Of a stretch of 64,000 nt of DNA, positions 2,807 to 56,856 are shown in pieces. Source of the stretch: an uncultured Gammaproteobacteria bacterium. GTDB lineage: Bacteria > Patescibacteriota > Patescibacteriia > Magasanikbacterales > UBA922. The stretch is taken from NCBI GenBank assembly GCA_964612105.1, contig CAZTEU010000001.1, positions 147,437 through 211,436 on the forward strand. The letters run 5' to 3'. A program made the position numbers and the translations under genes. The notes under the pieces were generated by a model, which searched no databases, was not told the origin of the DNA, and worked only from the letters and a program-made list of their open reading frames with translations. Within the stretch, counting starts at the first letter, position 1; every line of letters begins with the position of its first letter.

Positions 2807-2821
2807 CAAATATATAACAAT

Positions 2822-4506: not shown

Positions 4507-4533
4507 CCTACCCTCCTTCTGTGCGCTTCTGCG

Positions 4534-4965
4534 CTAGTTGTCCCCGAGATAATCCACCAATCTGCACACAAACTCCCCATTATCCATTTTGTGTGCAAAA
4601 ACCATTAGTACTTCTTCCAGCTCTGGGGTTGTCTGCTTGAGTAGTATTCTGGCATGTTTGAGTATGCTGGTGTTGGCTTTCAAGCTGTCATCTCTGATTG
4701 GATGTGGGTAGTCACAGTCCACATGATGGACAATCATGATCTTGGTCACACCATAGCTTATAACGAGCGTATCCACGACCAGCTTTTTCATCGCAGAAAG
4801 ATTGGTAATCATCTGCAAAGGACCACCATGAACAGAAACTTGGTGGTACTTATGAGTGATACCAAGATGCAAATTCATGCTGATAAAGTGGTGAATTGCC
4901 AGATTGAGTCGTGAATCGACACAGCGAATCACTGCCCACCTGCTCCGAGCGTTGGAATTATCCAT
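4534..4965 (-). CDS. beta-class carbonic anhydrase-like protein, paralog 2
   Basis: 143 aa with VIRCVDSRLN and VHHVDCDYPH. It is clearly paralogous to 4060-4506. GC-rich, with SD AGGGAGGACAG upstream. Confidence 0.45.
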   Translation of the reverse strand: MDNSNARSRWAVIRCVDSRLNLAIHHFISMNLHLGITHKYHQVSVHGGPLQMITNLSAMKKLVVDTLVISYGVTKIMIVHHVDCDYPHPIRDDSLKANTSILKHARILLKQTTPELEEVLMVFAHKMDNGEFVCRLVDYLGDN

Positions 4966-5049
4966 ACTGTCCTCCCTGGTTCTGTTAGTGCCACTTGCAG
5001 TGGCCGTCTATAAATGAGACAATAGCATGGAAATAATAAGAAATCAAGT

Positions 5050-5802
5050 ATGATAAAAATTAACAGACCAATTGTTTTTTTTGACTTAGAAACAACAGGT
5101 GTAGATCCTTTTACAGACAGAATAGTGCAAGTTGGTGCTATAAAAATACACCCGGATGGAGAGAAGGAAGAGTGGAATCAGTTAATTAATCCACAGATAG
5201 CAATTCCACAGGTTGTTATAGACGTTCATGGTATTACAGATGAAATGGTAAAAGATAAGCCAACTTTTGCTGAGTTAACTCAGAAGTTCGCTGAGTTCTT
5301 TCATGAAGTTGATTTAGGTGGTTATAATGCAAAGAATTTCGATATACCAATGTTAATGGCTGAGTTTAACCGTGTAGGACTAGAAATGGATTTAGAATCT
5401 GTAAAGATTATAGATCCAATGGCTATTTTCCGTAAAAAAGAACCTAGAACATTAGAGGCTGCTTACAAGAAATATTGCGATAAGGAGTTGGTAGATGCAC
5501 ATGATGCTATGGTGGATATAAGAGCATCTATAGAAGTTTTTGAGGGTCAGATGAAGCATTATGATGACTTACCAGATAATCTAGATGAAATGCATGAATA
5601 TTGCTTCCCAGAAGACCCGGATGCGTATGATGCAGAAGGAAAACTAAAGATAATAGATGGAGAAATTACAATTAACTTTGGAAAGCACAAAGGAAAACCA
5701 CTACAAAGATTAGCTGTAACAGATCCTGGATATCTAGAATGGATACTAAATGGAAGCTTCTCAGAAAAAGTTAAGAAGGCAGTAAAGGATCACAAAAAAT
5801 AA
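5050..5802 (+). CDS. DEDDh 3'-5' exonuclease (DnaQ/epsilon-like)
   Basis: Exo I motif FFDLETTG, plus later D and H-x4-D motifs (DAHDAMVD). 250 aa. Confidence 0.75.
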   Translation: MIKINRPIVFFDLETTGVDPFTDRIVQVGAIKIHPDGEKEEWNQLINPQIAIPQVVIDVHGITDEMVKDKPTFAELTQKFAEFFHEVDLGGYNAKNFDIPMLMAEFNRVGLEMDLESVKIIDPMAIFRKKEPRTLEAAYKKYCDKELVDAHDAMVDIRASIEVFEGQMKHYDDLPDNLDEMHEYCFPEDPDAYDAEGKLKIIDGEITINFGKHKGKPLQRLAVTDPGYLEWILNGSFSEKVKKAVKDHKK

Positions 5803-5804
5803 AA

Positions 5805-5830
5805 AAGTCCCCTTATGGGGATTTTTTTAT
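5805..5830 (+). terminator. rho-independent terminator
   Basis: GTCCCC-TTAT-GGGGAT hairpin followed by a T-run. Confidence 0.7.
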
Positions 5831-5931
5831 ATCTCACTATTTACAATTTTTTATAAAGAGTGAGGTTCTGGCGACGCATGCGTATGCAATTGTCGCCATT
5901 GTGAACCCTCCCTTAGATGTAGCCGAAGCTA

Positions 5932-6777
5932 CTATCGTTTGCCCTTCTCCTCCTCAGTGACATCGAAGGGCTTGATGTCGTTGAAGCCGGTATCCGCCTT
6001 GGTGCCCGGCAAGTTATTCACCACACCGACCTTGTTGAGCTCAGCGAGCGACACGTTGCCATAGCAGGTCGCTTTCACCCTTCTCTCCAGATTCATCCCG
6101 TACCCTTTCACGGTGGGAATATCCGAACGGCTCATGGTCTTGCAGAACTGCTCAACATCTCCTGGTCGGACATACTTGTGGTCTTTCTGGATGTACTTGA
6201 CATCGTGATTGACTGCATACGCCCAGTGTGCCGTCGTGAGAAACATCCTGGATAAAACACTCTCACTGGGCGATACCTTCTGCCAGGATTCGACCTTCTC
6301 GGCCAGCTTGTCCCATGCGACCATTTTGTGATAGGTATCGAGAACAACGCCGGTCACCCGTGTTGTGTACCTTCCGTCCCACGACATGTGTGGTTTGGTT
6401 GGATCTGGGATGATCTGCTTGACCGTGTTCGCATACCACGTCAAGAGGACTCTCCCCTTGCTGTAGTACTGACTCGGGACAACCTTGCCCTCCTCATCTT
6501 TCCGGAGCATCGTCCCAGCATCCGCACTGATCATGACCGAGATGCACTCAGCCACCTTCGGAGCGTGGAGTTGGTACTTCAGGACAGACTGGATCCGCTT
6601 GCTATACCCGTAGAACGCCACCTCCTTCGAGGGAACCTCGAAGTCAGCCAGGTTCATGTTGACGCACTGAAGCGTCTTGTTTGTGCCGTAGCCACCACCC
6701 ACCTGGGCAGCGCCACAGCCGATCATCAGGAACATCACGACGCCCATCAACAGGGCACCGAACAGTTTCTTCTTCAT
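5932..6777 (-). CDS. lipoprotein, hypothetical (GC-rich island)
   Basis: Start moved to the ATG at 6777 (MKKKLFGALLMGVVMFLMIGCGAA), which sits behind SD GGAGGAAG. The N-terminus is a signal peptide with lipobox LMIGC. ~56% GC in an AT-rich backbone. No recognisable domain. Confidence 0.6.
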   Translation of the reverse strand: MKKKLFGALLMGVVMFLMIGCGAAQVGGGYGTNKTLQCVNMNLADFEVPSKEVAFYGYSKRIQSVLKYQLHAPKVAECISVMISADAGTMLRKDEEGKVVPSQYYSKGRVLLTWYANTVKQIIPDPTKPHMSWDGRYTTRVTGVVLDTYHKMVAWDKLAEKVESWQKVSPSESVLSRMFLTTAHWAYAVNHDVKYIQKDHKYVRPGDVEQFCKTMSRSDIPTVKGYGMNLERRVKATCYGNVSLAELNKVGVVNNLPGTKADTGFNDIKPFDVTEEEKGKR

Positions 6778-7008
6778 CTTCTTCCTCCACACGGATTACG
6801 CCCCGTGATGCGCCTTTGGTCGACAGCTTATCGACACGGAGTATGATATTTAATCAATTAAATACCCCACTCTATGCCCAAATCTGACCGCGTATAATAG
6901 CACATTATTCCACTTTTGTCAAGTTAATCCACATATCCTTAGTTTATTATAGTACGAGTGCCTTTTTTTTGCTATAATATAACAAAATACTCCCCTGAGT
7001 TAATTTTT

Positions 7009-24148: not shown

Positions 24149-24964
24149 TTATCCCTTCTTGAGACGCAGAATTCGGTCCGTGCTGTGGAAGTTGTTGTCG
24201 AGATTGTCCCAGCGCTGTCTCCAGTGATCCGCGTGCCAGTAGACACAGCTGACGAGCTTGTTGTGGTCAGGGTTACGCCAGTCTGTGAAGACAAACACTA
24301 CCCTGTCTCGGAGCACGATGGGGATCTCGTCTTGGTGCTCCAACAAGTGCCGACCATGCTTTTCGCCGAGATGGGCATACCCAATCGTGGCACGCGCGAC
24401 CATGGCTTCGCCTCTGACACTCTCCTCACTATCTTCCAGGAAGTTGATAATCTCGTAGGTGCGGTCACCAACGGTCATCTCGGTCGGGAGAGCATCCTCT
24501 TCCTGCTTGAGACGCAGGATTCGGCTGATATTGCGGAACTGGTAGCCAATCCATTGCCATTGTCTCATCCAGTGTTTGCCATTCCAGTGTATGGTGCAAA
24601 TGTCCCCAGGATTGGCGTAATCGCGACGCCAGTTCGTGAAGACGAAGGTATTACCCCGTAGCTCGACTGGAATCTGGTGTTGGTGTTTCAGCAGATGTTC
24701 GCCTGCTTCCTTATTGGGGTTTGCGTCAATCTCGCTCACACGCCTCACCACTGTCTGACCATCTACCGACCCCTCTCCTTCCTCGTGGAACCCGAGAATC
24801 TCGTAGGTGCGGTCACCAACGGTCATCTCCTGAGGAAGGGAATCCCGGAAGAGCTTGTCGCAGAACCTCTTGACCTTCCCGGTGTTTTCCGGGTTGATCA
24901 GGTCTTCGAATCTCTTTTCACCCAACTGCTCCCGCAGATGAGCCAATTTACGCAAGGTGCCCAT
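24149..24964 (-). CDS. hypothetical protein with two tandem ~115-aa repeats (GC-rich island)
   Basis: PQEMTVGDRTYEILGFHEEGEGSV...FVFTNWRRDYANP...RILRLKQ is repeated as PTEMTVGDRTYEIINFLEDSEESV...FVFTDWRNPDHN...RILRLKK. ATG at 24964 sits behind SD GGGTGAGGAGAG. The track's GTG at 24970 is rejected. Confidence 0.5.
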   Translation of the reverse strand: MGTLRKLAHLREQLGEKRFEDLINPENTGKVKRFCDKLFRDSLPQEMTVGDRTYEILGFHEEGEGSVDGQTVVRRVSEIDANPNKEAGEHLLKHQHQIPVELRGNTFVFTNWRRDYANPGDICTIHWNGKHWMRQWQWIGYQFRNISRILRLKQEEDALPTEMTVGDRTYEIINFLEDSEESVRGEAMVARATIGYAHLGEKHGRHLLEHQDEIPIVLRDRVVFVFTDWRNPDHNKLVSCVYWHADHWRQRWDNLDNNFHSTDRILRLKKG

Positions 24965-25198
24965 TTGCACCTCTCCTCACCCTTTTGTACAAAGGGTTCA
25001 CTCCTCACCAACATGACGAAGAGGAAGACGAGTTGGTGTTCAGGTCTTCTCTTTGCATACCTAAGTAAATATACACAGAGAAGACCTAAACCATAGTATT
25101 TTAAAGAGCTATTTGACTGGTCAGATTAACATTAAATCACTATTTTGTCAATATAACCTAATTATATAACATATTTACCTAATTCTAGCTATAAAGTA

Positions 25199-25227
25199 TT
25201 GACAAATCCCTATATTTATGCTAGTTT
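25199..25227 (+). promoter_or_regulatory. putative sigma70-like promoter for rpiB
   Basis: TTGACA, a 17-nt spacer, then a weak -10 TAGTTT. AT-rich. Confidence 0.3.
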
Positions 25228-25260
25228 ATGCTCACACCCCAAGGGGAAGGAGAGAAAATC

Positions 25261-25767
25261 ATGAGTAAATCACTCAACATCGTCATCACTTCCGACCATG
25301 CAGGTCTGGATATGCGGGCGGCAATCTGCGCTTACCTGCGCAAAGAAGGTCATGCAGTCATCGACCAGGGTCCACAGCCGGGAGAGGTTGTAGACTACCC
25401 GGAGTACGCGGAGGCTGCAGTACAAGCAATGCTCTGTGACATTCCTAGCGATGTGGACGACAGCATCAAGATCGATCTGGTCATCCTCATCTGCGGTACA
25501 GGCATCGGTATGAGCATCGTCGCGAACAAGTTCAGCGGTGTCAGTGCAGCTCTGGTACACGACCATCTCACCGCGAAATTCGCGAAAGAGCACAACAACG
25601 CGAACGTGCTCTGCCTGGGCTCACGTGTGACAGCTGATGTTGTCGCAGTCGACTGCGTTGCCACGTTCCTCGAGGCAAAGTTCGAAGAGCGCCACCAACG
25701 ACGCATTGACATGATCATGGACATCGAGGTGAACGGTTCATGTATCGGATCTTTGATGTCTGACTGA
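25261..25767 (+). CDS. rpiB: ribose-5-phosphate isomerase B
   Basis: MSKSLNIVITSDHAG...CGTGIGMSIVANK matches RpiB/LacAB. Start moved to ATG 25261, 8 nt after SD AAGGGGAAGGAGAG. GC-rich. Confidence 0.8.
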   Translation: MSKSLNIVITSDHAGLDMRAAICAYLRKEGHAVIDQGPQPGEVVDYPEYAEAAVQAMLCDIPSDVDDSIKIDLVILICGTGIGMSIVANKFSGVSAALVHDHLTAKFAKEHNNANVLCLGSRVTADVVAVDCVATFLEAKFEERHQRRIDMIMDIEVNGSCIGSLMSD

Positions 25768-25778
25768 ACAAGGAGATG

Positions 25779-25815
25779 AACCAAAAGCCCCCTTCGAACG
25801 ATTCGGAGGGGGCTG
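25779..25815. terminator. GC-rich hairpin terminator (functional T-run on the minus strand, serving hpf)
   Basis: AGCCCCCTTCG-aacgat-TCGGAGGGGGCT. On the minus strand it is followed by TTTTGG. Confidence 0.5.
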
Positions 25816-25847
25816 GCGGAACTTATCATTTAACAGATGGTATTTTT

Positions 25848-26201: not shown

Positions 26202-27224
26202 TTATATTAGTTGAATCTCTTCATTTAAAGTAAACCCATATCTATCATACACAGTTTGCTTAATTTCCTCAATAAGGGTGGTAACGTCTGCAGAAGTTGC
26301 CTTACCAAGATTAATGATAAAGTTGCCATGTTCCTCACTAATTTTTGCATCACCAATTTGTCTTCCTTTTAGTCCACACATTTCCACAAGCCATCCAGCT
26401 GGTATTTTCTTGTTCTGTAAAAAACTAGCTACTTTCTCATCTTCCTTACTAAAATTATCCAATAGCTTCTGAGATATAGAATCATCTATAATTTCTATGT
26501 TCTTAAAAATACAGCCAGTAGAAGCATATCCTTTAGGTTGAGTTTCATTTCTGTACTTAATAACTTCCAATGCTTTACGTCTTGCATCATTGTCCTCTCC
26601 TTTTTTTAACGAAAAGGTTGCTCGTAATATTACATCATTGTTGTGCTTAAATTTGCTGTCACGATACCCGAAATTACAATCTTCGTTAGAAAGAGTTATT
26701 GCTTCCCCATCTCTGTACACTTCTACAGATTTTAGTGTGTCTTTTATCTCTGCACCAGTAGCTCCAGCATTACCCCTGATTGCTCCTCCAATACTTCCTG
26801 GTATACCAACTCCCCATTCAAAACCTGTTAATCCAGATTTTATTGTCTCCTGAGCAAGAGCAACAGTCTGTATTCCAGCTGTGGCTGTGACCTCTTCCCC
26901 CTTCACTTCTACTGACCTATCCACAATCTGGACAACAACACCATCATAACCATTATCACTAGCAAGCATATTGCTTCCACCTCCAAACACAATATATTTA
27001 TGCCCTTCTCCGTCTAGATATTTTAGTAGGTCTATTGCAGAATCTACACTGTCTACAATTACAAAATAGGTGGCTGGACCACCAATCTTGAAGGTTGTGT
27101 GTTTGGAAAGAGGTTCGTTTGTCTTTACCTTTCCAAATTCTTTTAATTTTGAGTAAATTTCATCCATAACTAACCTAAGGATAGCGTTATTTTGAGTAAT
27201 TTGCAAGTATACTCTGTTATCCAC
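26202..27224 (-). CDS. murB: UDP-N-acetylenolpyruvoylglucosamine reductase
   Basis: FAD-binding FKIGGPATYF...VFGGGSNML and the C-terminal MurB domain. Confidence 0.8.
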   Translation of the reverse strand: MDNRVYLQITQNNAILRLVMDEIYSKLKEFGKVKTNEPLSKHTTFKIGGPATYFVIVDSVDSAIDLLKYLDGEGHKYIVFGGGSNMLASDNGYDGVVVQIVDRSVEVKGEEVTATAGIQTVALAQETIKSGLTGFEWGVGIPGSIGGAIRGNAGATGAEIKDTLKSVEVYRDGEAITLSNEDCNFGYRDSKFKHNNDVILRATFSLKKGEDNDARRKALEVIKYRNETQPKGYASTGCIFKNIEIIDDSISQKLLDNFSKEDEKVASFLQNKKIPAGWLVEMCGLKGRQIGDAKISEEHGNFIINLGKATSADVTTLIEEIKQTVYDRYGFTLNEEIQLI

Positions 27225-27357: not shown

Positions 27358-27384
27358 AGCCACCTCAACCGAGGTGGTTTTTCT
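27358..27384 (+). terminator. intrinsic terminator/attenuator hairpin
   Basis: CCACCTC-aacc-GAGGTGG followed by TTTTT. No gene ends here on the + strand. Confidence 0.5.
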
Positions 27385-27399
27385 ATTGGGGGTGGGAAA

Positions 27400-27612
27400 G
27401 ATGAGTGGGAATCAGGAACATGGCGCAGTCTCAAACGACAAGGACGGGAACGATCTCTTTCCAGGAGATGTTGTCTGGCCAGGATGGGCACTGTTCGCAG
27501 GAAGACGAGGGGTTGTGCAAGAATCCACATACAGCTCTGCTATCGTTCATCTCGTGGAGGAGGGTGGTACAGCAAGTGGAACAATCCGCAGTTCCTCAGT
27601 ATCCAAACGCTG
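27400..27612 (+). other. GC-rich unit: either a 70-aa ORF with an SD, or a structured RNA
   Basis: GGGGGTGGGaaagATG, then MSGNQEHGAVSNDKDGNDLFPGDVVWPGWALFAGRRGVVQ... Three + frames are simultaneously open. Flanked by hairpin terminators at 27358-27384 and 27633-27674. Confidence 0.3.
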
Positions 27613-27632
27613 AGCAAGGAGGACACACAGCG

Positions 27633-27674
27633 GGGATCTAGGCATTAGCCTGATCCCCGTGTCTCTTTTTTTGG
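27633..27674 (+). terminator. rho-independent terminator
   Basis: GGGGATC-(12 nt)-GATCCCC, then gtgtctc, then T7. Confidence 0.55.
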
Positions 27675-27704
27675 CTAATTCTAGCCTTTTTTTTTACTTT
27701 ACTA

Positions 27705-29354: not shown

Positions 29355-29459
29355 AAAATGTAGTTGAGAGATTATAGCAGATATTGTGTATTTTTCAAGT
29401 ACACATACTTTTCCACACTCCCCTAGACTTTATTTGTTTTATACTCTATACTTTTTCCA

Positions 29460-29690
29460 TACCCTTGAGGTATGGCGTCGTGCATGCGCGGATGTTGTCT
29501 TGCCACCAACCCTCATCGAGGGTAGGTCAGCAGATGCAGCCGTAGGAACTCTACTAATTATCAAGAGGTCCAGTCCTTGCTTTTTCTGCCCCGTCGATCA
29601 CCAAATAAGGCTTCGGGGCTCATCACGTAGGAGCGACTGACGGTTCTTAGGGGGATCTTAGTTGTGTACGACGCCCCCTCCATTTGACCA
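29460..29690 (+). ncRNA. candidate small structured RNA (~215 nt, GC-rich), identity unknown
   Basis: GC-rich block with no credible ORF. The 5' end GGCGTCGTGC (29466-29475) pairs with the 3' end GTACGACGCC (29668-29677) as a closing stem. Followed by terminator 29720-29744. Confidence 0.3.
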
Positions 29691-29719
29691 AAAAAGGTTT
29701 TTGTCCAAATGTTGTAAAA

Positions 29720-29744
29720 AAACGCTTAAATAAGCGTTTTTTTT
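29720..29744. terminator. bidirectional terminator
   Basis: A7-CGCTTA-aa-TAAGCG-T8. Confidence 0.65.
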
Positions 29745-29754
29745 ATATTCTCTA

Positions 29755-29783
29755 TTGACAGGTTGTCCTATTTCAAGTATAAT
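29755..29783 (+). promoter_or_regulatory. consensus sigma70 promoter (TTGACA-N17-TATAAT)
   Basis: TTGACAggttgtcctatttcaagTATAAT is a perfect -35/-10 pair with 17-nt spacing. It sits directly upstream of a GC-rich non-coding stretch. Confidence 0.7.
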
Positions 29784-29789
29784 CCCCAG

Positions 29790-30245
29790 TTGTTTCCTGT
29801 TAGAACTCCGTATAAGGAAGAACGATCTCACGGCTCGATCAAGTAGTTGAGGGGGGTAGAAAAGGAAGGACATAAGTCACCCTTCCTTAGAGGCCAACCA
29901 AAGCCACCCTTCTTCGTCCTCTGCATTGCAAGTCGAAAAAAAACAAAAGATCGAGTGTAAGTCCCTAGTACTCCAGTGATGATCGGCCCCTTATGGCGTT
30001 GAGTACGCGGAAATGATGGAGGTGTGTGTTCCCAAGCTGCTCGGGGTTCAATTCCTGAAAACTGTCGCTTTCTGGCTAAGGCCTGATTGTAGGATGACGG
30101 ACGAGACAAAACAGTGGAAAGTTCACTCCCCTTCTACGTGTACGGTAGCGACGTGCGGTTCTGTAGTCCTAATATTTGGATTACATTCCGCACGTCGCTG
30201 CCACACGTTCGACCATATAAACCTCATTAAGATGTGGTTTTTTGT
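29790..30245 (+). ncRNA. candidate ~455-nt GC-rich non-coding RNA, identity unknown
   Basis: Downstream of the perfect promoter. No ORF with SD or homology. Several GC stems (AAGGAAGG...CCTTCCTT at 29868-29896, and a 14-bp inverted repeat 30143-30157/30188-30202). Ends at T-run 30235-30249. Confidence 0.35.
30143..30202 (+). repeat. 14-bp inverted repeat (stem-loop with 30-nt loop)
   Basis: GGTAGCGACGTGCGG ... CCGCACGTCGCTGCC. Confidence 0.7.
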
Positions 30246-30252
30246 TTGGTAA

Positions 30253-31605
30253 TTATACTACTATTGATTCACTATTCTTTGGAATATCTGTTTCTATTCC
30301 CAATTCATCATTTATTCTTCCTGATAACGCCTCTAGTGCCTTTGGTTCCCCATGAATACATATAACCTTACTTGGTTTTTCTTCAGCCTCACTAATCCAC
30401 CTTACAAGCTTATTTTGATCTCCATGAGCAGATAATGCACCTATTGCTTTGATAGTACTTTTTACCTCAACATCCTGCCCAAATATCTTTACGCTCTTAT
30501 GCCCATCATATATTTTTCTTCCACGAGTGCCTTTTGCTTGATAGCCAACAATAATAAGTGTGGACTTTGGATCCGATAAATACCTAAACAAGTGATGAAT
30601 AATACGCCCACCATTCATCATTCCTGCTCCTGCTATAATTATTTTTGGACCTTTTATGTTGTTTATTTTTTTAGACTCTTCTTTTGAGCGTGTAATTTGT
30701 AGCTGTGGAAACTTAAAAAAATCATCGCCTTTTGTGTATTGGTCACAAGCCTCCTTGTCATAGTATTCTGGATATTTCCTGTACACTGGCAATGCATCTA
30801 TAGCTAGTGGACTATCCAGGAATATGGGAACATCTGGAAGAGTTTTATCTTCCTCACTCATTTCATCCAGCTCATACAAAAGCTCTTGTGTGCGCTCCAT
30901 AGAAAATGCAGGAATCATGATTGTCCCACCACGGGCAACTCCTTCTTTTATTAAATCCAAAATAATCTTCTTTCTTTCTGTGATTGTTTCGTGAATACGA
31001 TCACCATATGTTGATTCACAAACTAATGTATCTATTTTTCCAAGACCTTCTGTTTCTTTAAGTATAGGCACGTTATCATTTCCAATATCCCCAGAAAAAG
31101 CAATTACTTTTCCATTTATATTGACTTCTATGAAAGAGGCTCCAAAAATATGACCAGCATCCTTAAATATTGCATAGTCCCCATCCCCAAGATCTACTTT
31201 TTCATGATAATCAATACCATTACATTGGGAAACAGACCTTTCTATTTCTTCCTCATTAAATAATATGGGTGTTTGATATTTCTTATTATTATAGGTCATT
31301 ATACGAAACGCATCCTGCCATAATAATTTTATCAGACCAAATGTTCCTTTTGTCATATGAATAGAACCTGTATACCCATCTTTTACTAACTTTGGAATCC
31401 TGCCGGAGTGGTCTGTATGAGCATGAGTTAACAAAACATGATCAATTGTGTGTGGGTCGAAAGGAAAATTATCAGCGTTTCTCCCTTCGTTAAAATCTCC
31501 TCCTTGAAACATACCACAATCAACTAAAATGCGCTTAGAGCCCGTATCAATTAGATGGCATGAGCCTGTAACTTCTTCTGCTGCTCCGAAAAAAGTGATT
31601 TTCAT
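30253..31605 (-). CDS. beta-CASP MBL-fold ribonuclease (RNase J / CPSF-like)
   Basis: MKITFFGAAEEVTGSCHLI, HAHTDHSG, a beta-CASP region and a C-terminal RMMBL-like part. Start taken at the second Met. Confidence 0.7.
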   Translation of the reverse strand: MKITFFGAAEEVTGSCHLIDTGSKRILVDCGMFQGGDFNEGRNADNFPFDPHTIDHVLLTHAHTDHSGRIPKLVKDGYTGSIHMTKGTFGLIKLLWQDAFRIMTYNNKKYQTPILFNEEEIERSVSQCNGIDYHEKVDLGDGDYAIFKDAGHIFGASFIEVNINGKVIAFSGDIGNDNVPILKETEGLGKIDTLVCESTYGDRIHETITERKKIILDLIKEGVARGGTIMIPAFSMERTQELLYELDEMSEEDKTLPDVPIFLDSPLAIDALPVYRKYPEYYDKEACDQYTKGDDFFKFPQLQITRSKEESKKINNIKGPKIIIAGAGMMNGGRIIHHLFRYLSDPKSTLIIVGYQAKGTRGRKIYDGHKSVKIFGQDVEVKSTIKAIGALSAHGDQNKLVRWISEAEEKPSKVICIHGEPKALEALSGRINDELGIETDIPKNSESIVV

Positions 31606-31695
31606 AATGGAAAAATTAGTGAAAATAATGTACAATTACATATATAATACATTGTCTATTAACTCTATACAAGACGGTGTTGTTCTGTTATACTC

Positions 31696-47265: not shown

Positions 47266-48123
47266 ATGATATTAGCATCTTCAGGTACCATCGAGGATCG
47301 TTTGGTTCACCTACTTGCCACTATTGGCAGTTGTTCTGCTGTCTCACTTCATGAGCAGTACGCAAAAACACACAGATCCATTTCAAAACAAGCAGTATAC
47401 AAAGTGCTTCGTAATTTGCAAAGTTGTGAAGTAGTGTACAAACACAACGGCAATTACCATCTCAATATGGGGTGGCTTTTAAATTTTATAGATCTTGCAC
47501 TTAAAGCACAGAACACATACTTTGGAAGTGAATTTCTCAAACAGATTCTTGAGCCAAACAGGTCAAATGAGTGTTCGTGGAGGTTCGAAAGCATTGAATC
47601 TCTTTGTCAAAGATACAGTCAATTACTTATCTTGCTGACAAAAACATCTAAAACAAAAATATTATATCAATACCATCCACATGCGTGGCTTTTTTATATG
47701 TGCAACAACGCATGGCATGCACCACATAACAGATACAGAAACACTTTAAAAAGAAACGGTATTATCTTAGGGTGTGAAGGATACATCGAAAAGGCGTTGT
47801 TTCAGAAAAATCTTAGAAATAATTCTGTTGGACAAATATATATTGCAGATGAGTCCGAAAAAATCTGCACATCACAACAAAACTACACTCATATAATTGA
47901 TGATTTTGTATTGCAAATAGTATTTGATGAATACACGTCAGATATAACATCACGCCTATGTGGACAGATTTCCACAAAAGAAGACATGGAACTCATTGAT
48001 ACTCTATTTAGAAGAAAAGCAAAAATAAAAATAACCCTTAAAAGGGATGAGAGAGCTTCAAAAATACTTAGGGAGAGATTCGAGAGAGTATTTGGTCCTA
48101 TTACTATTCAAGAACAGCTCTGA
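47266..48123 (+). CDS. hypothetical protein with an N-terminal winged-helix-like region
   Basis: 285 aa. N-terminal ~70 aa are wHTH-like (SISKQAVYKVLRNLQSCEVVYKHNGNYHLN). The rest is unassigned. Confidence 0.35.
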   Translation: MILASSGTIEDRLVHLLATIGSCSAVSLHEQYAKTHRSISKQAVYKVLRNLQSCEVVYKHNGNYHLNMGWLLNFIDLALKAQNTYFGSEFLKQILEPNRSNECSWRFESIESLCQRYSQLLILLTKTSKTKILYQYHPHAWLFYMCNNAWHAPHNRYRNTLKRNGIILGCEGYIEKALFQKNLRNNSVGQIYIADESEKICTSQQNYTHIIDDFVLQIVFDEYTSDITSRLCGQISTKEDMELIDTLFRRKAKIKITLKRDERASKILRERFERVFGPITIQEQL

Positions 48124-50002
48124 TTCTTCTTACTCCTGCACTTGCAGATTTTTCTTTTTTAATTTTAAATTTTCCAAGATTACCTATCTTCTCAACGTGA
48201 GGACCTCCACAAAATTCTCTACTAAATGTCTTAGATTCAACCCCTGCTGATGGTAGTGAATTGGAATCACCAACAGAGTAAACCTTTACTTGGTCACCGT
48301 AATTATCTGCAAATAAACCAATTGCACCTTTTGACTTTGCCTCTTCAACAGACATCATCTCAAAAGTTACAGAATAGTCTCTCTGTATTGCACCATTTAC
48401 CAAATCCTCTATTTTCTTTTTTTCATCGTCTGTTAATTTTTCCGGATGAGAAAAATCAAAACGCAAACGCTCTGGAGTAATATTACTACCTTTCTGCACA
48501 GCATGAGGTCCAAGCACTTCCCTAACTGCCGCGTGTAATAAGTGTGTCGCAGTGTGATATTTAATACTCATCTCATCATGGTCTGCAAGACCTCCTTTAA
48601 ACTTCTTTTCAATCCCCTTGCGAGAAACATCCTGATGCTTTTCTCTCTCACTATTAAACTCCTTCATATCTACAACAATTCCTTTTTCACTTGCCAACTC
48701 AACAGTAAGTTCAATAGGAAAACCATATGACTGATACAAATCAAAGGCATCTTTTCCAGATATTTTTTTATCTTTTGAAAGCTTAGCAAACTCTTTTATT
48801 CCTTGTTTAATTGTTTCCTGAAACTTACCCTCTTCCTTATTCATCTCCTTTAATATAGTATCTTGTTTATCTAAAAGATCCTTGTAAGTCTCTTGATATG
48901 TTTCTATAACATTTGAAGCTATCTTTCCACAAAATGGTTCTGTAATATTTATCTTCTGCGCATATCTAATAGCTCGCCTAATTAATCTTCTAGTAAAATA
49001 CCCCTGGTCTTTATTTGAAGGATTAGCTCCGTCTAGAATTAAGAACGTTGCTGCACGAATGTGATCTAGAATGACACGAAATGCATAGGTATCTTCTTCA
49101 TCTTCTGAGTATTTCTTATCAGAAAGTTTCTCTAAATTTTCTCGCATTGAATTAAACGCATCTATCATAAAAATGTCTGGATTATCCATAACAGCGGATG
49201 ACATTCTCTCGAGCCCACCACCAAAATCTACATTTTTCTGTTTAAGATTAGTAAACCCTTTCTCTGTTTTCTGATATTCCATAAATACACTGTTCCCGAT
49301 TTCAGAAAATCTTCCACAATCACAATTTACGTGACACTTGTCTTTCCTCCATTGTGACCTTCCATGTAAACCTAAATCTTCTCCAAAGTCCCAAAATATT
49401 TCTGTATCTGGACCACCAGGCTCACCGACAGGCATATTTTTTTTAATGCCTCCCCTACTCCACCAGTTTTTTGTTTCATCGTAATAAAATATTCTGTCAC
49501 CATCCTTCATTCCTTCTTTTTCTGGAATATAATCTGCAATATTTGCATCTATTCCTTTTTCCTTAAACATTTTCTGCCACAAAACAGCAGATTCTTTATC
49601 TTTCTCAACATCCTTATCTCCACGGAAACAAGTTATGTATATACGACTTGGGTCTAGTCCTAATTGATTAACTACAAAATCAAAAACCCATGGAATTTGC
49701 TCTTTCTTAAAATATTCACCTAAAGACCAATTACCAAGCATTTCAAAAAAAGTTGTATGGCGGTTATCACCAACCTCATCTATATCTTGTGTGCGAAAAC
49801 ATCTCTGAGAGTTTGTTATCCTCTCTCCTGCAGGATGTTTCTCACCGAGAAGATATGGAACAATAGGTTGCATCCCAGAGCCAGTAAAAAGTGTAGTTGG
49901 ATCATTTTCTGGTAACAAAGGAGCAGAAGGAAGCACAGTGTGCTTGTTCGATTCAAAAAAAGATAGGTATTTTTTTCTTATTTCATTAATAGTCATACTC
50001 AT
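48104..50002 (-). CDS. alaS: alanine--tRNA ligase, short form (lacks the C-terminal C-Ala domain)
   Basis: Class II catalytic core plus an editing domain with HxxxH (HTATHLLHAAV) and CGGPH. Only 632 aa. Confidence 0.8.
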   Translation of the reverse strand: MSMTINEIRKKYLSFFESNKHTVLPSAPLLPENDPTTLFTGSGMQPIVPYLLGEKHPAGERITNSQRCFRTQDIDEVGDNRHTTFFEMLGNWSLGEYFKKEQIPWVFDFVVNQLGLDPSRIYITCFRGDKDVEKDKESAVLWQKMFKEKGIDANIADYIPEKEGMKDGDRIFYYDETKNWWSRGGIKKNMPVGEPGGPDTEIFWDFGEDLGLHGRSQWRKDKCHVNCDCGRFSEIGNSVFMEYQKTEKGFTNLKQKNVDFGGGLERMSSAVMDNPDIFMIDAFNSMRENLEKLSDKKYSEDEEDTYAFRVILDHIRAATFLILDGANPSNKDQGYFTRRLIRRAIRYAQKINITEPFCGKIASNVIETYQETYKDLLDKQDTILKEMNKEEGKFQETIKQGIKEFAKLSKDKKISGKDAFDLYQSYGFPIELTVELASEKGIVVDMKEFNSEREKHQDVSRKGIEKKFKGGLADHDEMSIKYHTATHLLHAAVREVLGPHAVQKGSNITPERLRFDFSHPEKLTDDEKKKIEDLVNGAIQRDYSVTFEMMSVEEAKSKGAIGLFADNYGDQVKVYSVGDSNSLPSAGVESKTFSREFCGGPHVEKIGNLGKFKIKKEKSASAGVRRIRAVLE

Positions 50003-50088: not shown

Positions 50089-51153
50089 TTATACTATAGC
50101 TCCGCCACCAAGACAGACCTCATCCTTATATATTACAGCAAATTGCCCCGGTGTTACAGCTTTTTGTTTATTTTTGAAAGTAATTGTTAGGTCGTCTATT
50201 ACAGCATCCTGTAGTGGTTGCCTGTGACGCAACCTTACTTTACATTCTAAAGGAAAATCCGGAGTATGTCCACTTATATAGTGAATGTTTTCAAGATTAA
50301 TTATTTCTGCAAACAACTTTGGATCATCATCAAAACCAACGACTAGTTCATTTGTTTCTGTTCTTTTTTCTATAATATACAAAGGTCTATTCTCACCAGG
50401 CTTTTGTTTTATTTCAGAACTTTGCACACCAAAGTTTCTTTGACCTATAGTGTAAAACATCAAACCCTCGTGACTTCCTATCTTCCGACCATCACTTGAG
50501 ATAATATTACCTGGATTCTTTTTTATTTTCTGTTGTAAGAATTCTTTAATTGGCACTTCGCCAACAAAACAAATTCCCATGCTCTCTGCTCGATCAGCTG
50601 TTGGAAGATTGTATTTATGAGCTAGCTCACGCACTTCTTCTTTTGTATAATTTCCAAGCGGAAATTTTATATTTTCTAGCTGTTTTTTTGTGATTTGATT
50701 TAGGAAATATGTCTGATCCTTTTCTTTGTCTTTTGCTTTAAGCAATTTTCCATTTTCTGTTTTTGCATAATGACCTGTTGCAAGATAGTCAAAACCAAGC
50801 TCTCTTGCTTTTCCTAACCAAGCGCCAAATTTTATAAACTTATTACACATTACATCTGGGTTTGGGGTTTTTCCTTTTTCGTATTCACTAAACATGTAGC
50901 CCATTACCCATTCTTTATATTCTTTTTCAAAATCTAATGTAACTAATGATATTCCTAAGTGTGCACAGACTCTCATTGCATCCCTACGATCTACTTTCCA
51001 TGGACACACACCACCTATCTCTTCACCATCACTCCACTGTTTCATATATGCACCTGTAACATCATACCCTTGCTCCACTAATAAAGAAGCGGCTACCGAA
51101 GAATCGACACCGCCTGACATTGCTACTAATATTTTTGTCTTCTTGTTGCTCAT
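50089..51153 (-). CDS. mnmA: tRNA-specific 2-thiouridylase
   Basis: PP-loop VAMSGGVDSSVAA and a C-terminal MnmA domain. Start at MSNKK. The track extension into the GC-rich leader is rejected. Confidence 0.8.
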   Translation of the reverse strand: MSNKKTKILVAMSGGVDSSVAASLLVEQGYDVTGAYMKQWSDGEEIGGVCPWKVDRRDAMRVCAHLGISLVTLDFEKEYKEWVMGYMFSEYEKGKTPNPDVMCNKFIKFGAWLGKARELGFDYLATGHYAKTENGKLLKAKDKEKDQTYFLNQITKKQLENIKFPLGNYTKEEVRELAHKYNLPTADRAESMGICFVGEVPIKEFLQQKIKKNPGNIISSDGRKIGSHEGLMFYTIGQRNFGVQSSEIKQKPGENRPLYIIEKRTETNELVVGFDDDPKLFAEIINLENIHYISGHTPDFPLECKVRLRHRQPLQDAVIDDLTITFKNKQKAVTPGQFAVIYKDEVCLGGGAIV

Positions 51154-51349
51154 AAATATAATGAGTGTCCCGCTTTGACACTCATAGTAGTCCGAATGGG
51201 TCGTAAGAACCACATGAGGTTGGGGACCTCAGACACGCGCAAGAGGCGGGAGGTAAGGTGGGTGCCTCAAACGAGTGCGGAGTGCCAAAGCGGAACCATC
51301 CACATGCCAGGGTGGGGAGTGGGCTGTTCTGAACCCAGGCATATAAGAT
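51154..51349 (-). promoter_or_regulatory. GC-rich structured 5' leader of mnmA (~195 nt) with promoter 51356-51384
   Basis: Minus-strand TTGACA (51384-51379), a 17-nt spacer, then TATAGT (51361-51356). The leader is ~60% GC. A 9-bp hairpin ATGAGTGTC/GACACTCAT (51161-51185) ends 7 nt before the AUG. Confidence 0.45.
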
Positions 51350-51386
51350 AGATAGACTATAGTGATTATTTGCTGTTTTGTCAACA

Positions 51387-51408
51387 AAATACCCCCAAAT
51401 GGGGGTAT
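51387..51408 (-). terminator. terminator hairpin for the 51427-51849 gene
   Basis: AATACCCCC-aaat-GGGGGTATT followed by a U-rich tail on the minus strand. Confidence 0.5.
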
Positions 51409-51426
51409 TAAATATATTTCTTTGTA

Positions 51427-51849
51427 TTATTTCGCACCTTTCTTGTCTTCCTGCTCTACTTTTGGCTTAGTAAATGTGCCATCGAACTCATATCCTGCGT
51501 AAGCTGTGAGAATAAGAAACCAAGCATATCCAATATACATTAGCTTGTTTAGGAAAAACTCACCATAATTACCTTCTATAAAAAGAGGCACAGTAATGAT
51601 AGCGTCAAGTATAGAACCTACAACCAAAGCAATAATTCCAAGTAGAATACCTTTTTTAAGAGTTGGAGGATCAGCTTTGAAATACCATTTTGCTGTAAGT
51701 AATACCACAGGTATTAGTAGAACCCAGTAAACGACAAATTGAGTTGTTTCTTTGTCTTGCAGTGCAGGAATAAATATTATGATTGACCAGAGTACGAAGA
51801 TAAATATCCACATTAGTGCTCCAAAACCAAGTGCGCGTTTTATATTCAT
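51427..51849 (-). CDS. membrane protein (hypothetical)
   Basis: 140 aa with four TM helices. Confidence 0.4.
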   Translation of the reverse strand: MNIKRALGFGALMWIFIFVLWSIIIFIPALQDKETTQFVVYWVLLIPVVLLTAKWYFKADPPTLKKGILLGIIALVVGSILDAIITVPLFIEGNYGEFFLNKLMYIGYAWFLILTAYAGYEFDGTFTKPKVEQEDKKGAK

Positions 51850-51980: not shown

Positions 51981-52571
51981 ATGAGTTCACGAATAGAGTC
52001 GCCAAGCAAGAAAGACCTCAGAGAGGTATCGAATGCTTTCAAGATCACAGAGAACTGGCCAAAACCTGGTGTTACCTTCCGCTGTGTCAGCGGTGTGCTG
52101 GAGTCACCAAAACTTCGACGAATGATGAACATGGCGCTGTCAAAAAGGATCCAGGAAATGACGCCAGATGTCGTTGTGCTCCTCGATTCACGAGGCTTCC
52201 TGCTCACTCCAGCGGTAGACCTCCTCTGTCTGCCAGTTGTCATGGCGCGCAAGGCTGGCAAGCTACCACCACCATGCGTCGCTTACACTTACGACTTGGA
52301 ATACGGAACAGCGACCATCGAGCTACAGAGGCAGGCTTTCCACAAAACCAGCAGGGATATGGCTTCCCGTGGTATGAGTGGACCACCAAGAGTGGTGATC
52401 GCTGATGACGTCCTCGCAACTGGGGGCACTGTACTGGCAACCAAAACCCTTGTGGAACAGTTGGAATGCACAGTGGCAGGATACGTGTTCATCGCAGAGC
52501 TCAATGGACTTGGAGGGTCAAATAGGCTCGCCACAAAGTCCACACCTGTCGAGTCACTCTTTCGTTTCTAG
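51981..52571 (+). CDS. apt: adenine phosphoribosyltransferase (GC-rich island)
   Basis: PRTase PRPP-binding loop VVIADDVLATGGTV and APRT-like N-terminus ITENWPKPGVTFRCVSGVLESPKL. SD GGAGGG sits 6 nt upstream. Confidence 0.7.
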   Translation: MSSRIESPSKKDLREVSNAFKITENWPKPGVTFRCVSGVLESPKLRRMMNMALSKRIQEMTPDVVVLLDSRGFLLTPAVDLLCLPVVMARKAGKLPPPCVAYTYDLEYGTATIELQRQAFHKTSRDMASRGMSGPPRVVIADDVLATGGTVLATKTLVEQLECTVAGYVFIAELNGLGGSNRLATKSTPVESLFRF

Positions 52572-52583
52572 GGAGGAAGCAAA

Positions 52584-53177
52584 ATGTCCAAGGAAAGAGA
52601 AATCGACCAAATCGATACCCTCCTGACCGCAGAGGAAATCGCAGAGCGTGTTGAGAAGATCGGTAAGCAGATCTCTCTCGACTACAGAGGTAAGTTGGAC
52701 GGCCAACCACTCATCCTCATCTGTGTACTCAAAGGTTCGTTTATCTTCACAGCCGACCTGATGCGTGCCATCGATGAGGACATTCCGGTAATCGTTCAGT
52801 TCATCGCTGTGAGTTCCTACGAGGGGAAAACCACCAAATCAAGTGGTGCTGTTCGTCTCGCATACGACCTCCGTGAAAACATCGAAGGACGAGACTGCAT
52901 CATTGTAGAGGACATCGTTGACACCGGATTGACGGTGAAGTACCTTCTAGATCTGTTTGGGGCACGCAAACCGCGTTCACTGCGAGTCTGTACACTCCTC
53001 CACAAGCCGTCGCGTGAAAAGGTCAAAGTGCCACTGCAATATGTCGGCTACACAATCGAGAACAAGTTCGTTGTTGGTTGCGGTCTGGACTACGACCAGC
53101 TACTACGTGGACGAGGAGACATTGGAGAGCTGGTCTTCAAAGACGAAGGGGAAGAGGGCAGTCCTGAGGGAGGCTAG
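52584..53177 (+). CDS. hpt: hypoxanthine-guanine phosphoribosyltransferase (GC-rich island)
   Basis: LKGSFIFTADL...IVEDIVDTGLTVKYL...LLHKPSR...GCGLDY. SD GGGAGGAAG. Confidence 0.8.
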   Translation: MSKEREIDQIDTLLTAEEIAERVEKIGKQISLDYRGKLDGQPLILICVLKGSFIFTADLMRAIDEDIPVIVQFIAVSSYEGKTTKSSGAVRLAYDLRENIEGRDCIIVEDIVDTGLTVKYLLDLFGARKPRSLRVCTLLHKPSREKVKVPLQYVGYTIENKFVVGCGLDYDQLLRGRGDIGELVFKDEGEEGSPEGG

Positions 53178-54694: not shown

Positions 54695-54727
54695 AATCCC
54701 GATTACTCGGGATTACTAATCTATGCA
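54695..54727 (-). terminator. rho-independent terminator of the Cys-rich protein gene
   Basis: Minus strand: AATCCCGA-gtaa-TCGGGATT followed by T8. Confidence 0.7.
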
Positions 54728-54855
54728 CCATTATTGATGAACAAATTAGTGGGGCGGTGAATCTTTCGATCCACCGCCAGGGGTTCCCTCCTTGGGCTCC
54801 TCCTTCAGATTGTCCGGGACTAAACAACCTACCACCGTTCGTGCTGGCAACACTC

Positions 54856-56697
54856 TCAGATGCAGACCTGGGTAGGCCTTCCAATGGTCTTGTAGAAAAA
54901 CCACTCGATCCCGAATGCACAACCCTTGCCGTTCTTGTAGTCACAGCTCTGATCCTTGGGGTCGCTGTTGTCGCACTCAACACAGAACTTCTGGTTTTTC
55001 TTCTCGGCTGCCCAGTAGACAGTAGCACACTGCTCACCGAACTTTGACCCCTTGCAGTCCTTGTCGGCTCCACAGCAACCAAAGTCCTCATGGTGACATT
55101 TGCCGTTGAGATCACAGTAGTCCGCGGTGCAGACCTTGCCATCAGAGCAGTCCTTGTTGACCTTGCACAGCTTACATCCAGCGATTGGTTTGTATTGACA
55201 CCCATTCGTCTTGTTGCAGGAGTCTGTTGTGCACAGATCCCCGTCATCGCATGACAATTCCTTGCCTGTACAGATACTTCCCTTGCACTTGTCGTTGAGG
55301 GTGCAGACGTTCATGTCTGTGCAAATTGCACCATCGTCCATCGGGATGAAGGTGCACTTGCCGGTCTTCTGGTCACAGGAGTCCTTGGTGCAAGGGTTCT
55401 TGTCCACACACTCCACTCCCATGCCAAGACACTTGCCGTCCTTGCATCCATCGCTGGTCGTGCAAGAATCGTTGTCGTTGCAGTCGATACCATTCTGGGA
55501 TGGTGTGAAGGCACAATCTCCAGTCTTGGAGTCGCAGAAATCCTTGGTGCATGGATTGTTGTCTTCACACACCTTTGTGGTTTTCGTGATGCAGACCCCA
55601 CTGATGCACTTTTCCACAGTGCAGACGTCGCTTTCCTTGCACTTCTTCATCTCTGTGATCTTGCAACCCTTGCTTGTGCAGACCATCTTCTCGATGCACG
55701 ACTGAGCGTCGACTTTGCACTGATCGTGGTCTGGGCTGTGAGCACACTTCCCTGTTCCAAGAACGCACGAGTCGATGGTGCATGCGATTCCATCCTTGCA
55801 GTCGACAGACTCGTTCTTGCACTTGCTGTTGGCTGTGCAGGTGTCGGTGGTGCAGAGGTTCTTGTCATCACAATCACCTGACTTGGTGCACTCGCAAACG
55901 TTGATGCCTTTGGTGCACGTGTTCTTGATGCACTGATGATTGACTGTGCAAGAATCCTCGTCATCGCACTCGACGTCTGTAGAGCAACAGTCCTCGATCT
56001 CCTCGTGTATGCACTCTTTCAAGGTTTCCAAATCGCAGGAGTCTGCAGTACAAGGTTTGCCGTCGTCGCAGGACTTTTGGTTCACAGTGAACACACACTT
56101 CCCGCTCTCGAAGACGCATAGATCGTCTGTGCAATCAACCCCGTCGTCGCAAATGACATTGTCCGTGTTCACACAAAGACTGTCCTGACATACGTCGACG
56201 GTGCAGAGATTCTCATCCAAATCACACACATTGCCAATCGACTTGTACACGCAACCCTTGCCTGGATCGCATGAATCGTCCGTGCAGACATTGTCGTCGT
56301 TGCAAACCTTCCACGAATCCATGTCTCCGACACACTTCCCGCTTTCGAGATCGCACTTGGAAATCTCGGTGCAGGAGTTGTTATCATCACAGGTCGCGGT
56401 GTTTGGCATATGCACACAGCCGACATCTTCTTCGCAGACATCTTTGGTGCAAATCTTGCCGTCGTCGCATTTGTCGGGGACGTAGTCGCACTTGTTGTTG
56501 CTGTTGCATTTGCCAATCCAGCAACTCTTGATGCAATCATCCTTCGTCTCACAGAAACCAGGAGGAAGTTGTGTATCCTCAGAGCCCTGATCTGCAAAGG
56601 TAGCAGCGTCAGCCGGCCCTTTGACCGAATCTTCGCTACATGAAATTGAGAGGAAAATCACCACGAACATCGTGATGATGAGGTCCCGGTTCATCAT
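54856..56697 (-). CDS. giant cysteine-rich repeat lipoprotein/secreted protein (GC-rich island)
   Basis: Start at MMNRDLIITMFVVIFLSISC, 7 nt after SD AAGGAG. Dozens of repeats of the form C-x-D-x-N/D-x-C-T-x-D-x-C-D-x-x-T/S-G-x-C, about 18% Cys. Resembles Myxococcus-type cysteine-rich repeats (inference). Confidence 0.65.
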   Translation of the reverse strand: MMNRDLIITMFVVIFLSISCSEDSVKGPADAATFADQGSEDTQLPPGFCETKDDCIKSCWIGKCNSNNKCDYVPDKCDDGKICTKDVCEEDVGCVHMPNTATCDDNNSCTEISKCDLESGKCVGDMDSWKVCNDDNVCTDDSCDPGKGCVYKSIGNVCDLDENLCTVDVCQDSLCVNTDNVICDDGVDCTDDLCVFESGKCVFTVNQKSCDDGKPCTADSCDLETLKECIHEEIEDCCSTDVECDDEDSCTVNHQCIKNTCTKGINVCECTKSGDCDDKNLCTTDTCTANSKCKNESVDCKDGIACTIDSCVLGTGKCAHSPDHDQCKVDAQSCIEKMVCTSKGCKITEMKKCKESDVCTVEKCISGVCITKTTKVCEDNNPCTKDFCDSKTGDCAFTPSQNGIDCNDNDSCTTSDGCKDGKCLGMGVECVDKNPCTKDSCDQKTGKCTFIPMDDGAICTDMNVCTLNDKCKGSICTGKELSCDDGDLCTTDSCNKTNGCQYKPIAGCKLCKVNKDCSDGKVCTADYCDLNGKCHHEDFGCCGADKDCKGSKFGEQCATVYWAAEKKNQKFCVECDNSDPKDQSCDYKNGKGCAFGIEWFFYKTIGRPTQVCI

Positions 56698-56856
56698 CTC
56701 AGCTCCTTCTTGACTGCACTTGGCAGTACTGTTGCGCACACGAATACAAATGGTCAGCTTGAGCTAACACACACAATATCCATAAGATACTCTGTGAGCT
56801 AGCCCAAAGCATAGTATAAAAAGAACGCTGTTGTTCCTATTATAGGAAAACAGCTA

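Follow-up and report, generated by a model that had tools for sequence, protein, structure and literature searches.

A long, GC-rich structured leader before mnmA in a member of the Patescibacteria

The described systems closest to the locus analyzed here are the intrinsic-terminator attenuators and the expression platforms of transcriptional riboswitches and T-box leaders. Comparison is also warranted with transcribed palindromic repeats (MITEs) such as the Correia elements of Neisseria and the ERIC elements of enterobacteria, with the 5′ stabilizer stem-loops of bacterial mRNAs, for example those of the ompA and aprE leaders, and with the small RNAs of the RsaE/RoxS type, which are found in Firmicutes and carry C-rich loops.

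Patescibacteria (CPR) have tiny genomes with few regulators and, to our knowledge, almost nothing has been described of how their genes are controlled. A literature search for structured mnmA leaders and for non-coding RNAs of CPR bacteria returned nothing relevant. In this setting an essential gene for tRNA modification that has a structured leader of 196 nt is exceptional, and the leader would be among the few candidate RNA-level controls in these bacteria.

Our subject is such a leader, in a 64-kb stretch of DNA (referred to below as the window) which the relatives of its MnmA protein place in the Patescibacteria, near Candidatus Magasanikbacteria. Considering its promoter, its predicted fold and the corresponding loci of related genomes together, we propose that it may be a lineage-restricted, cis-acting structured 5′ leader which would gate mnmA expression by attenuation or processing. 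We give this reading a probability of roughly two in five. The alternatives, which range from a processing signal to a tolerated insertion, are weighed below where the relevant evidence is presented.

The mnmA promoter and the extent of the leader

The mnmA gene lies on the minus strand and is preceded by a sigma-70-type promoter with a −35 box TTGACA (51384–51379), a 17-nt spacer and a −10 box TATAGT (51361–51356), a match at 11 of 12 consensus positions exactly where a first-pass annotation of this DNA had placed it. Promoters matching at 11 or more positions are about 3-fold enriched in the window (9, against 2.8 ± 1.8 in Markov-shuffled sequence). The mnmA promoter follows directly on the terminator of the upstream gene (Table 1). 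From the −10 box, transcription is predicted to start about 7 nt further on, at ~51349, which leaves ~196 nt before the ATG at 51153 and bears out the earlier estimate of ~195 nt. Base composition had been overdrawn: ~60% GC was claimed for the whole leader, which has 54% overall and 59–63% only at the peaks of 100-nt windows, and leaders in this genome had been said normally to stay below 30%, whereas the other intergenic gaps of the window mostly have 23–42% GC, three have 43–46% and the tRNA gap has 54%. A value of 54% in an AT-biased genome nevertheless argues for maintenance of the leader.

Native genes of the window are essentially devoid of Shine-Dalgarno sites, with GGAGG-type sites only at two GC-rich phosphoribosyltransferase genes. 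Promoters matching at 10 or more of 12 positions lie 8–48 nt from the next start codon and, judged by sequence, mRNAs of the window would as a rule seem to have very short leaders or none. Against this habit the mnmA promoter is an outlier, and the 202 nt between its −10 box and the ATG are exceptional. An internal promoter giving a leaderless mnmA mRNA was rejected, as the last 40 nt of the leader carry no −10 box at a workable distance. On the plus strand, a promoter-like site TTGTCT-N16-TATAAT (51135–51162; 10/12) lies inside the start of mnmA and faces the leader and the bidirectional terminator at 51388–51409. An antisense RNA transcribed from this site was also rejected: the antisense fold has a z-score of −1.3 and the site is absent in the closest related species, L014.

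Translated from the ATG at 51153–51151, mnmA begins MSNKKTKILVAMSGGVDSS, a canonical MnmA N-terminus with its PP-loop motif (Pfam). Public gene calls for both this species and L014 have MnmA begin at Met12 (343 aa; 51120–51153 region, minus strand). A start at Met12 removes the strand before the SGGVDS P-loop, and the ATG at 51153 (354 aa) is the credible start. The AUGAG at this position could pair weakly with a CUCAU in the leader tail. No terminator was found between mnmA and alaS, and the leader transcript probably comprises both genes. A −10-like TATAAA is located 8 nt upstream of the alaS ATG. The AlaRS encoded there has the catalytic and editing/SAD domains and lacks a long C-terminal domain; lengths in relatives are similar, at 631–642 aa.

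Could the leader itself be coding? It includes a 37-aa proline-rich open reading frame MPGFRTAHSPPW... (MPGFRTAHSPPWHVDG...) at 51342–51229 on the minus strand, whose AUG is 8 nt from the predicted transcription start, and starts near transcript 5′ ends are favored in this genome. We give a small protein next to no credence. Neither this frame nor a second one overlapping the leader matches Pfam. In L014 the ATG abuts the −10 box, so that it falls upstream of the predicted transcription start, and the frame stops after 17 codons; a 60-aa frame in the leader of another relative, L052, is unrelated. Open frames are, moreover, expected by chance in GC-rich sequence. Leader peptides, including those that would sense Lys, Glu or Gln codons, were rejected since the reading frames are not conserved.

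Table 1. Coordinates of the mnmA transcription unit and of the structural elements of its leader (positions in the window)
Feature	Position	Strand	Remarks
Upstream gene, 140-aa membrane protein	51427–51849	−	ends in the clean terminator 51409–51388
Intrinsic terminator of upstream gene	51388–51409	−	ACCCCCAUUUGGGGGU, then U run; 5′ boundary of the unit
Leader RNA	51154–51349	−	predicted 196 nt from predicted start; 54% GC; C-rich (C 64, G 42)
H1, 5′-terminal hairpin	51298–51349	−	leader nt 1–52; C-rich apical region; from fold
P2, 5′ strand	51280–51296	−	GUUCCGCUUUGGCACUC; leader nt 54–70; from fold
H3 hairpin	51233–51278	−	16-nt loop ACCCACCUUACCUCCC; inside P2; from fold
H4 hairpin	51215–51231	−	UGAGGU-CCCCA-ACCUCA; inside P2; from fold
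H5 hairpin	51187–51213	−	7 bp, 13-nt loop; inside P2; from fold
P2, 3′ strand	51167–51183	−	GAGUGUCAAAGCGGGAC; 17 bp with 51296–51280
Alternative terminator-like hairpin	51161–51185	−	9 bp; −11.5 kcal/mol; then UAUAUUU
mnmA	50089–51153	−	354 aa from ATG 51153–51151; no Shine-Dalgarno site
alaS, short AlaRS	48104–50002	−	632 aa; 86 nt downstream of mnmA, co-oriented

Fold of the leader RNA and the competing 3′ hairpin

In the sense orientation the leader folds at −77.5 kcal/mol, compared with −51.3 ± 4.0 kcal/mol for dinucleotide shuffles (z −6.6; none of 200 as good), while the opposite strand is unremarkable (z −1.3). The sense structure has 59 pairs, eight of which are G-U, and contains no A-C 1×1 mismatches. 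The difference between strands, the G-U pairs and the lack of A-C mismatches together indicate that the fold belongs to the mnmA-sense RNA and not to a DNA palindrome, and this points to selection acting on the RNA.

The minimum free energy (MFE) and centroid structures agree on the layout, a local 5′ hairpin (H1) followed by a four-way junction closed by the 17-bp helix P2. Two of the P2 pairs are G-U and would be A-C mismatches on the opposite strand. When the sequence is read against the fold, all four hairpin loops are seen to contain CCC runs. The leader ends in a 13-nt AU-rich tail.

The 3′ strand of P2 is also part of the alternative hairpin AUGAGUGUC-AAAGCGG-GACACUCAU, which ends 7 nt upstream of the mnmA AUG, and the two structures are therefore mutually exclusive. 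The U tract after this hairpin is interrupted. The first-pass annotation had described the leader as ending in it; its position and size are right, but it is not the dominant structure, being outcompeted by P2. With the hairpin enforced, the best fold reaches −64.9 kcal/mol against an MFE of −79.9 kcal/mol, so that P2 is favored by ~15 kcal/mol. During simulated transcription the MFE structure alternates between H1 and an alternative 5′ fold in which the 5′ strand of P2 takes part, up to the point where the 3′ strand of this helix emerges.

From the exclusivity of P2 and the hairpin, and from the run of hairpin and U-rich tract into the AUG, we infer a gate of the attenuator type. P2 would be the read-through form and the default, able to form once its 3′ strand has been transcribed, and the 3′ hairpin would be the terminating or blocking form; the leader would in this way set how much transcript reaches mnmA. 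Switching would require something to hold the P2 5′ strand; a trans-acting factor might do so, as might the alternative 5′ fold, which is almost isoenergetic while transcription is under way. The weak point of the model is the predicted stability of P2, whose margin over the hairpin (15 kcal/mol here, 11.6 kcal/mol for its counterpart in L014) leaves no obvious way of reaching the terminator form, and L014 has no clear anti-antiterminator.

The closest rival to an attenuator gate assigns the same helices to processing and mRNA stability. RNase III would cut P2 (17 bp; 19 bp in L014) and the freed 3′ strand would refold into the 9-bp hairpin. The resulting mnmA mRNA, with its short leader, would open with this hairpin and be shielded by it against RNase J, a 5′ exonuclease. 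The window and L014 both have long, near-perfect duplexes, a local hairpin stands 7–9 nt before the AUG in these two and 19 nt before it in L052, and very short leaders are otherwise usual in the genome, all of which would suit this model. A duplex of 17 bp is at the short end of the range for RNase III substrates, which counts against it, as does L052, where no P2-like closing helix of such length is found. The genes rnc, rnj and pnp are kept in at least 90% of CPR genomes (PMC12641178) and the window encodes a beta-CASP RNA-metabolizing nuclease (30253–31635), but an RNase III gene was not seen within its 64 kb. We think a processing and stability role unlikely, if not strikingly so.

Known RNA families, relatives and neighboring GC-rich units

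Searched with Rfam 15 at gathering thresholds, the whole window yielded one tRNA elsewhere and nothing at the leader. With E-values up to 10 over 50900–51700, the leader itself attracted just mir-96 (14.7 bits) and ACA59 (12.2 bits, opposite strand), far below threshold, and the stronger sub-threshold matches of this interval fall on the upstream terminator/promoter region. Nine related loci gave no Rfam match, and ARAGORN found neither a tRNA nor a tmRNA at the leader site. The first-pass annotation had recognized no T-box, SAM, preQ1, ZTP or other consensus by eye, and Rfam concurs, with no family at any threshold.

Several individual classes were also considered and rejected. A 6S RNA would be an end-paired rod, which the local 5′ hairpin and four-way junction are not, and there is no RF00013 match. 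Self-cleaving ribozymes (hammerhead, twister, HDV-like and others) gave no match at E up to 10, and a CUGA next to a hairpin lacks the remainder of the hammerhead core. No defining feature of a tRNA mimic, a retron or a DGR template was found.

Close relatives are few. A collection of 5.8 billion proteins contains MnmA sequences above 70% identity only from the same species (100%) and from one other (74%), the next best being 69%. The same-species copies come from three metagenome samples and have identical leader DNA. Searches with the leader, by blastn and nhmmer, against 51 and then 141 mnmA loci and the window recovered these identical copies alone.

The 74% relative, L014 (OZ246405.1), has the same upstream gene, a terminator and a TTGACA-N17-TATATT promoter. 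Its leader is ~150 nt long and, at 49% GC, richer in GC than its locus (37%). The predicted fold (−51.3 kcal/mol; z −4.0 in the sense and −2.6 in the antisense orientation) comprises a hairpin at the 5′ end and a closing helix of 19 bp. At 2971–2992 a hairpin of 9 bp, followed by TTTTATATAT (UUUU), overlaps the 3′ strand of the closing helix and ends just before the ATG; it was also picked up by an independent scan, and is beaten by the closing helix by the margin given above. At the level of sequence the two leaders are not significantly similar, in either local or semi-global alignment against dinucleotide shuffles, and the local score is below the shuffle mean (z −0.3). Single-sequence covariance models of the window leader (R1) and of the L014 leader (R2) each found the partner at the right place and over its full length with 10.9–11.0 bits, and the window leader was the top hit of the L014 model within the 64 kb; unrelated hits, and each query when reverse-complemented, scored the same or higher, and with scores equal to noise we rejected these hits as evidence of homology. 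Common descent of the two leaders is plausible because they share site, promoter and layout. Comparative alignment, which the first-pass annotation had suggested as a check, thus uncovers no sequence conservation of the GC-rich block and a recurrence of the architecture at the same place in the 74% relative.

Further away, L052 (MnmA 64% identical) has TTGACA-N18-TATATT 193 nt upstream of mnmA and a different structured leader of 189 nt (z −5.1), with no similarity to that of the window. It includes two terminator-like hairpins, the last of which, with its UUUUU, ends 19 nt before the ATG. A hairpin and U tract between promoter and reading frame are accordingly present in the window (51185–51161), in L014 and in L052, and an exclusive upstream pairing that captures the 5′ strand of the terminator is present in the window and L014 and was not seen in L052. 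The 60-aa frame of the L052 leader overlaps the start of mnmA through a terminal ATGA and, at 340–898, this locus has a second promoter (340–369) and a ~270-nt non-coding unit whose terminator (642–657) comes just before the promoter of the mnmA leader. L130 (36%) has a distal promoter and GC-rich hairpins too.

Other relatives are organized differently. In L141 (65%), a separate GC-rich RNA of ~300 nt (1100–1450; z −5.05) is served by a promoter of its own and closed by a strong terminator, and mnmA has a further promoter 10 nt before it. Three loci with the same gene order (P0003, L137 and L140) have just 50–77 nt from the upstream gene to mnmA and no long leader, and a −10 box 6–18 nt before the mnmA ATG is common (L008, L135, L139 and L140). 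A strong promoter 100–320 nt upstream with none nearer was found in four lineages among the 120 mnmA loci with usable upstream sequence. Long GC-rich hairpins, unrelated in sequence to the window leader, lie between the upstream terminator and a promoter adjoining the mnmA ATG in L135 (2340–2460) and L008 (2760–2880). In L139, mnmA and alaS are separated by ~470 nt of hairpin-bearing non-coding sequence (2581–3050), and neither this stretch nor the ~300-nt RNA of L141 matches Rfam, the window or the other.

These comparisons bear on the idea of a ligand- or tRNA-sensing riboswitch, either T-box-like or of a new class, controlling mnmA and alaS. The alternative antiterminator/terminator pairing is what such a device would use, and an operon of a tRNA-modifying enzyme and a tRNA synthetase would be a fitting target. 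The absence of a conserved core argues against both a metabolite riboswitch and a T-box: nothing is common to the leaders of the window and of L014 or L052, covariance scores are in the noise, and most relatives have no such leader. For a T-box in particular, there is no RF00230 match and no GGUGG in the sense leader, the consensus ~AGGGUGGNACCGCG is absent, and H1 is a simple 52-nt hairpin without Stem I features. A generic riboswitch was rejected on the same lack of a shared core and, with Rfam silent even at E up to 10, we regard a sensing riboswitch as very unlikely; the riboswitch-like reading of the first-pass annotation is not sustained.

A different possibility is that nothing is regulated here and that a decayed palindromic, MITE-like repeat or a foreign GC-rich remnant has been tolerated between the −10 box and the ATG. 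P2 resembles terminal inverted repeats (15 of 17 positions at the DNA level) flanking a core of 96 nt, several GC-rich islands that look acquired give the window a mosaic character, the insert is missing from several relatives, and others have unrelated GC-rich palindromes near the mnmA promoter. Yet no second copy exists in the 64-kb window or the 141 loci, blastn of the leader against plasmids and phages found no match, and there is no target-site duplication at the ends of P2, whose flanks ...GGATG| and |ACTCA... form no direct repeat. The strand-specific fold with its eight G-U pairs is not expected of such a remnant, nor is the comparable layout at the same site in L014, even though neutral sequence between the two species is saturated. 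Maintenance of a GC-rich strand-specific fold, recurrence of the layout in L014 and exceptional length among short leaders speak against neutral junk, and we find a tolerated insertion rather improbable.

The mosaic nature of the window deserves description in its own right. Beyond the upstream gene, two tandem phosphoribosyltransferase genes (51981–53177, plus strand) have ~52% GC, against 38% for the genome, and carry clear ribosome-binding sites of the GGAGG type; they are missing from the syntenic region of L014 and look like a recent acquisition. Further GC-rich islands with open reading frames (52–62% GC) occur at 4060–6850, 24149–25830 and 54700–56740 and include a 627-aa frame with Dictyostelium-type CTDC repeats; two other frames scanned had no Pfam match.

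Other GC-rich stretches are non-coding. The sole 12/12 consensus promoter of the window (TTGACA-N17-TATAAT, 29755–29783) opens a unit on the plus strand (29755–30252) with ~460 nt of GC-rich sequence and no long reading frame. The folding energy of this sequence is −156.7 kcal/mol (z −4.35); a long hairpin and U run close the unit, and Rfam gives no match at E up to 1. Immediately before it, also on the plus strand, a ~290-nt GC-rich non-coding unit (29458–29750) has paired 5′ and 3′ ends (z −4.9), a strong terminator (29716–29743) and one weak Rfam hit (RsaF, 30 bits, far below threshold). At 27380–27680, 300 nt of ~53% GC without a long reading frame end in a terminator and contain GGGUGGUAC, which resembles the T-box core; Rfam reports no T-box match there and the fold is weak (z −1.7). 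On the minus strand, this segment is upstream of the gene at 26202–27224.

Promoter-driven units of this kind lend some color to the suggestion that the leader is a separate small RNA gene which shares the mnmA promoter, is freed by processing or when transcription terminates at the 3′ hairpin, and acts in trans through its C-rich loops. Its strong promoter, its terminator-like 3′ hairpin and the CCC runs of all four loops would suit such a role, and in L141 a GC-rich ~300-nt RNA with its own promoter and terminator occupies the same place, with mnmA separately promoted. P2, however, should pre-empt the terminator hairpin, so that most transcripts would read through. C-rich loops aimed at Shine-Dalgarno sites would have no obvious targets in a genome lacking such sites, and no loop sequence is conserved with L014. 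We judge a separate small RNA, too, to be rather improbable. The first-pass annotation had offered a cis-regulatory RNA or a small RNA. What stands is a long GC-rich structured sense RNA with its own near-consensus promoter, which could be a lineage-specific cis leader or a co-transcribed small RNA; the strong version of the claim falls, since the GC-rich block is not conserved.

Comparison with known systems

The mnmA leader adds a new, lineage-specific case to a known class of elements, that of structured leaders or attenuators, and no described riboswitch or leader family includes it. A bolder interpretation, which we consider decidedly improbable, would see in it the first case of a regulatory RNA that is restricted to Patescibacteria, defined by its structure and quick to evolve. 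On this view it would gate genes for tRNA maturation (mnmA and alaS) according to some cellular cue, for instance temperature, the speed of transcription or the condition of the tRNA pool; its architecture of 5′ hairpin, long closing helix and competing terminator would then have been kept in at least two to three Magasanikbacteria lineages despite turnover of the sequence. The reach of the finding is small, with two to four known lineages, no conserved core and an uncultivated organism, and we regard it as a modest lead, not as a new principle. More useful, perhaps, is the wider pattern: the window and several relatives have other promoter-driven GC-rich non-coding units, none of them in Rfam.

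With small RNAs of the RsaE/RoxS type the leader has in common the unpaired CCC or UCCC runs in every hairpin loop. It differs from them in having no Rfam match and no efficient terminator of its own, and in belonging to a host without G-rich Shine-Dalgarno targets. Like the ompA and aprE leaders, it presents a stable hairpin (H1) at or near its predicted 5′ end and a second one near the start codon, but it is much longer and more elaborate than protection of a 5′ end needs.

The resemblance to Correia and ERIC elements lies in an element of ~100–150 nt, bounded by inverted repeats and situated between promoter and gene, that, as part of the mRNA, would form a long stem and might be an RNase III substrate. 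Unlike these repeats, the leader is present as a single copy in the sequence covered, has no target-site duplication, owes the strand specificity of its fold to G-U pairs, and contains three internal hairpins as well as an extra one at its 5′ end.

Compared with attenuators, riboswitches and T-box leaders, it is without a recognizable sensor (T-box sequence, Rfam aptamer or conserved leader peptide), its terminator falls far short of the antiterminator-like helix in stability, and its sequence is unconserved even at 74% protein identity. It is nonetheless to the intrinsic-terminator attenuators and to the expression platforms of transcriptional riboswitches and T-boxes that its layout corresponds, with a hairpin and U tract placed just before the reading frame and an exclusive upstream helix that captures the 5′ strand of that hairpin.
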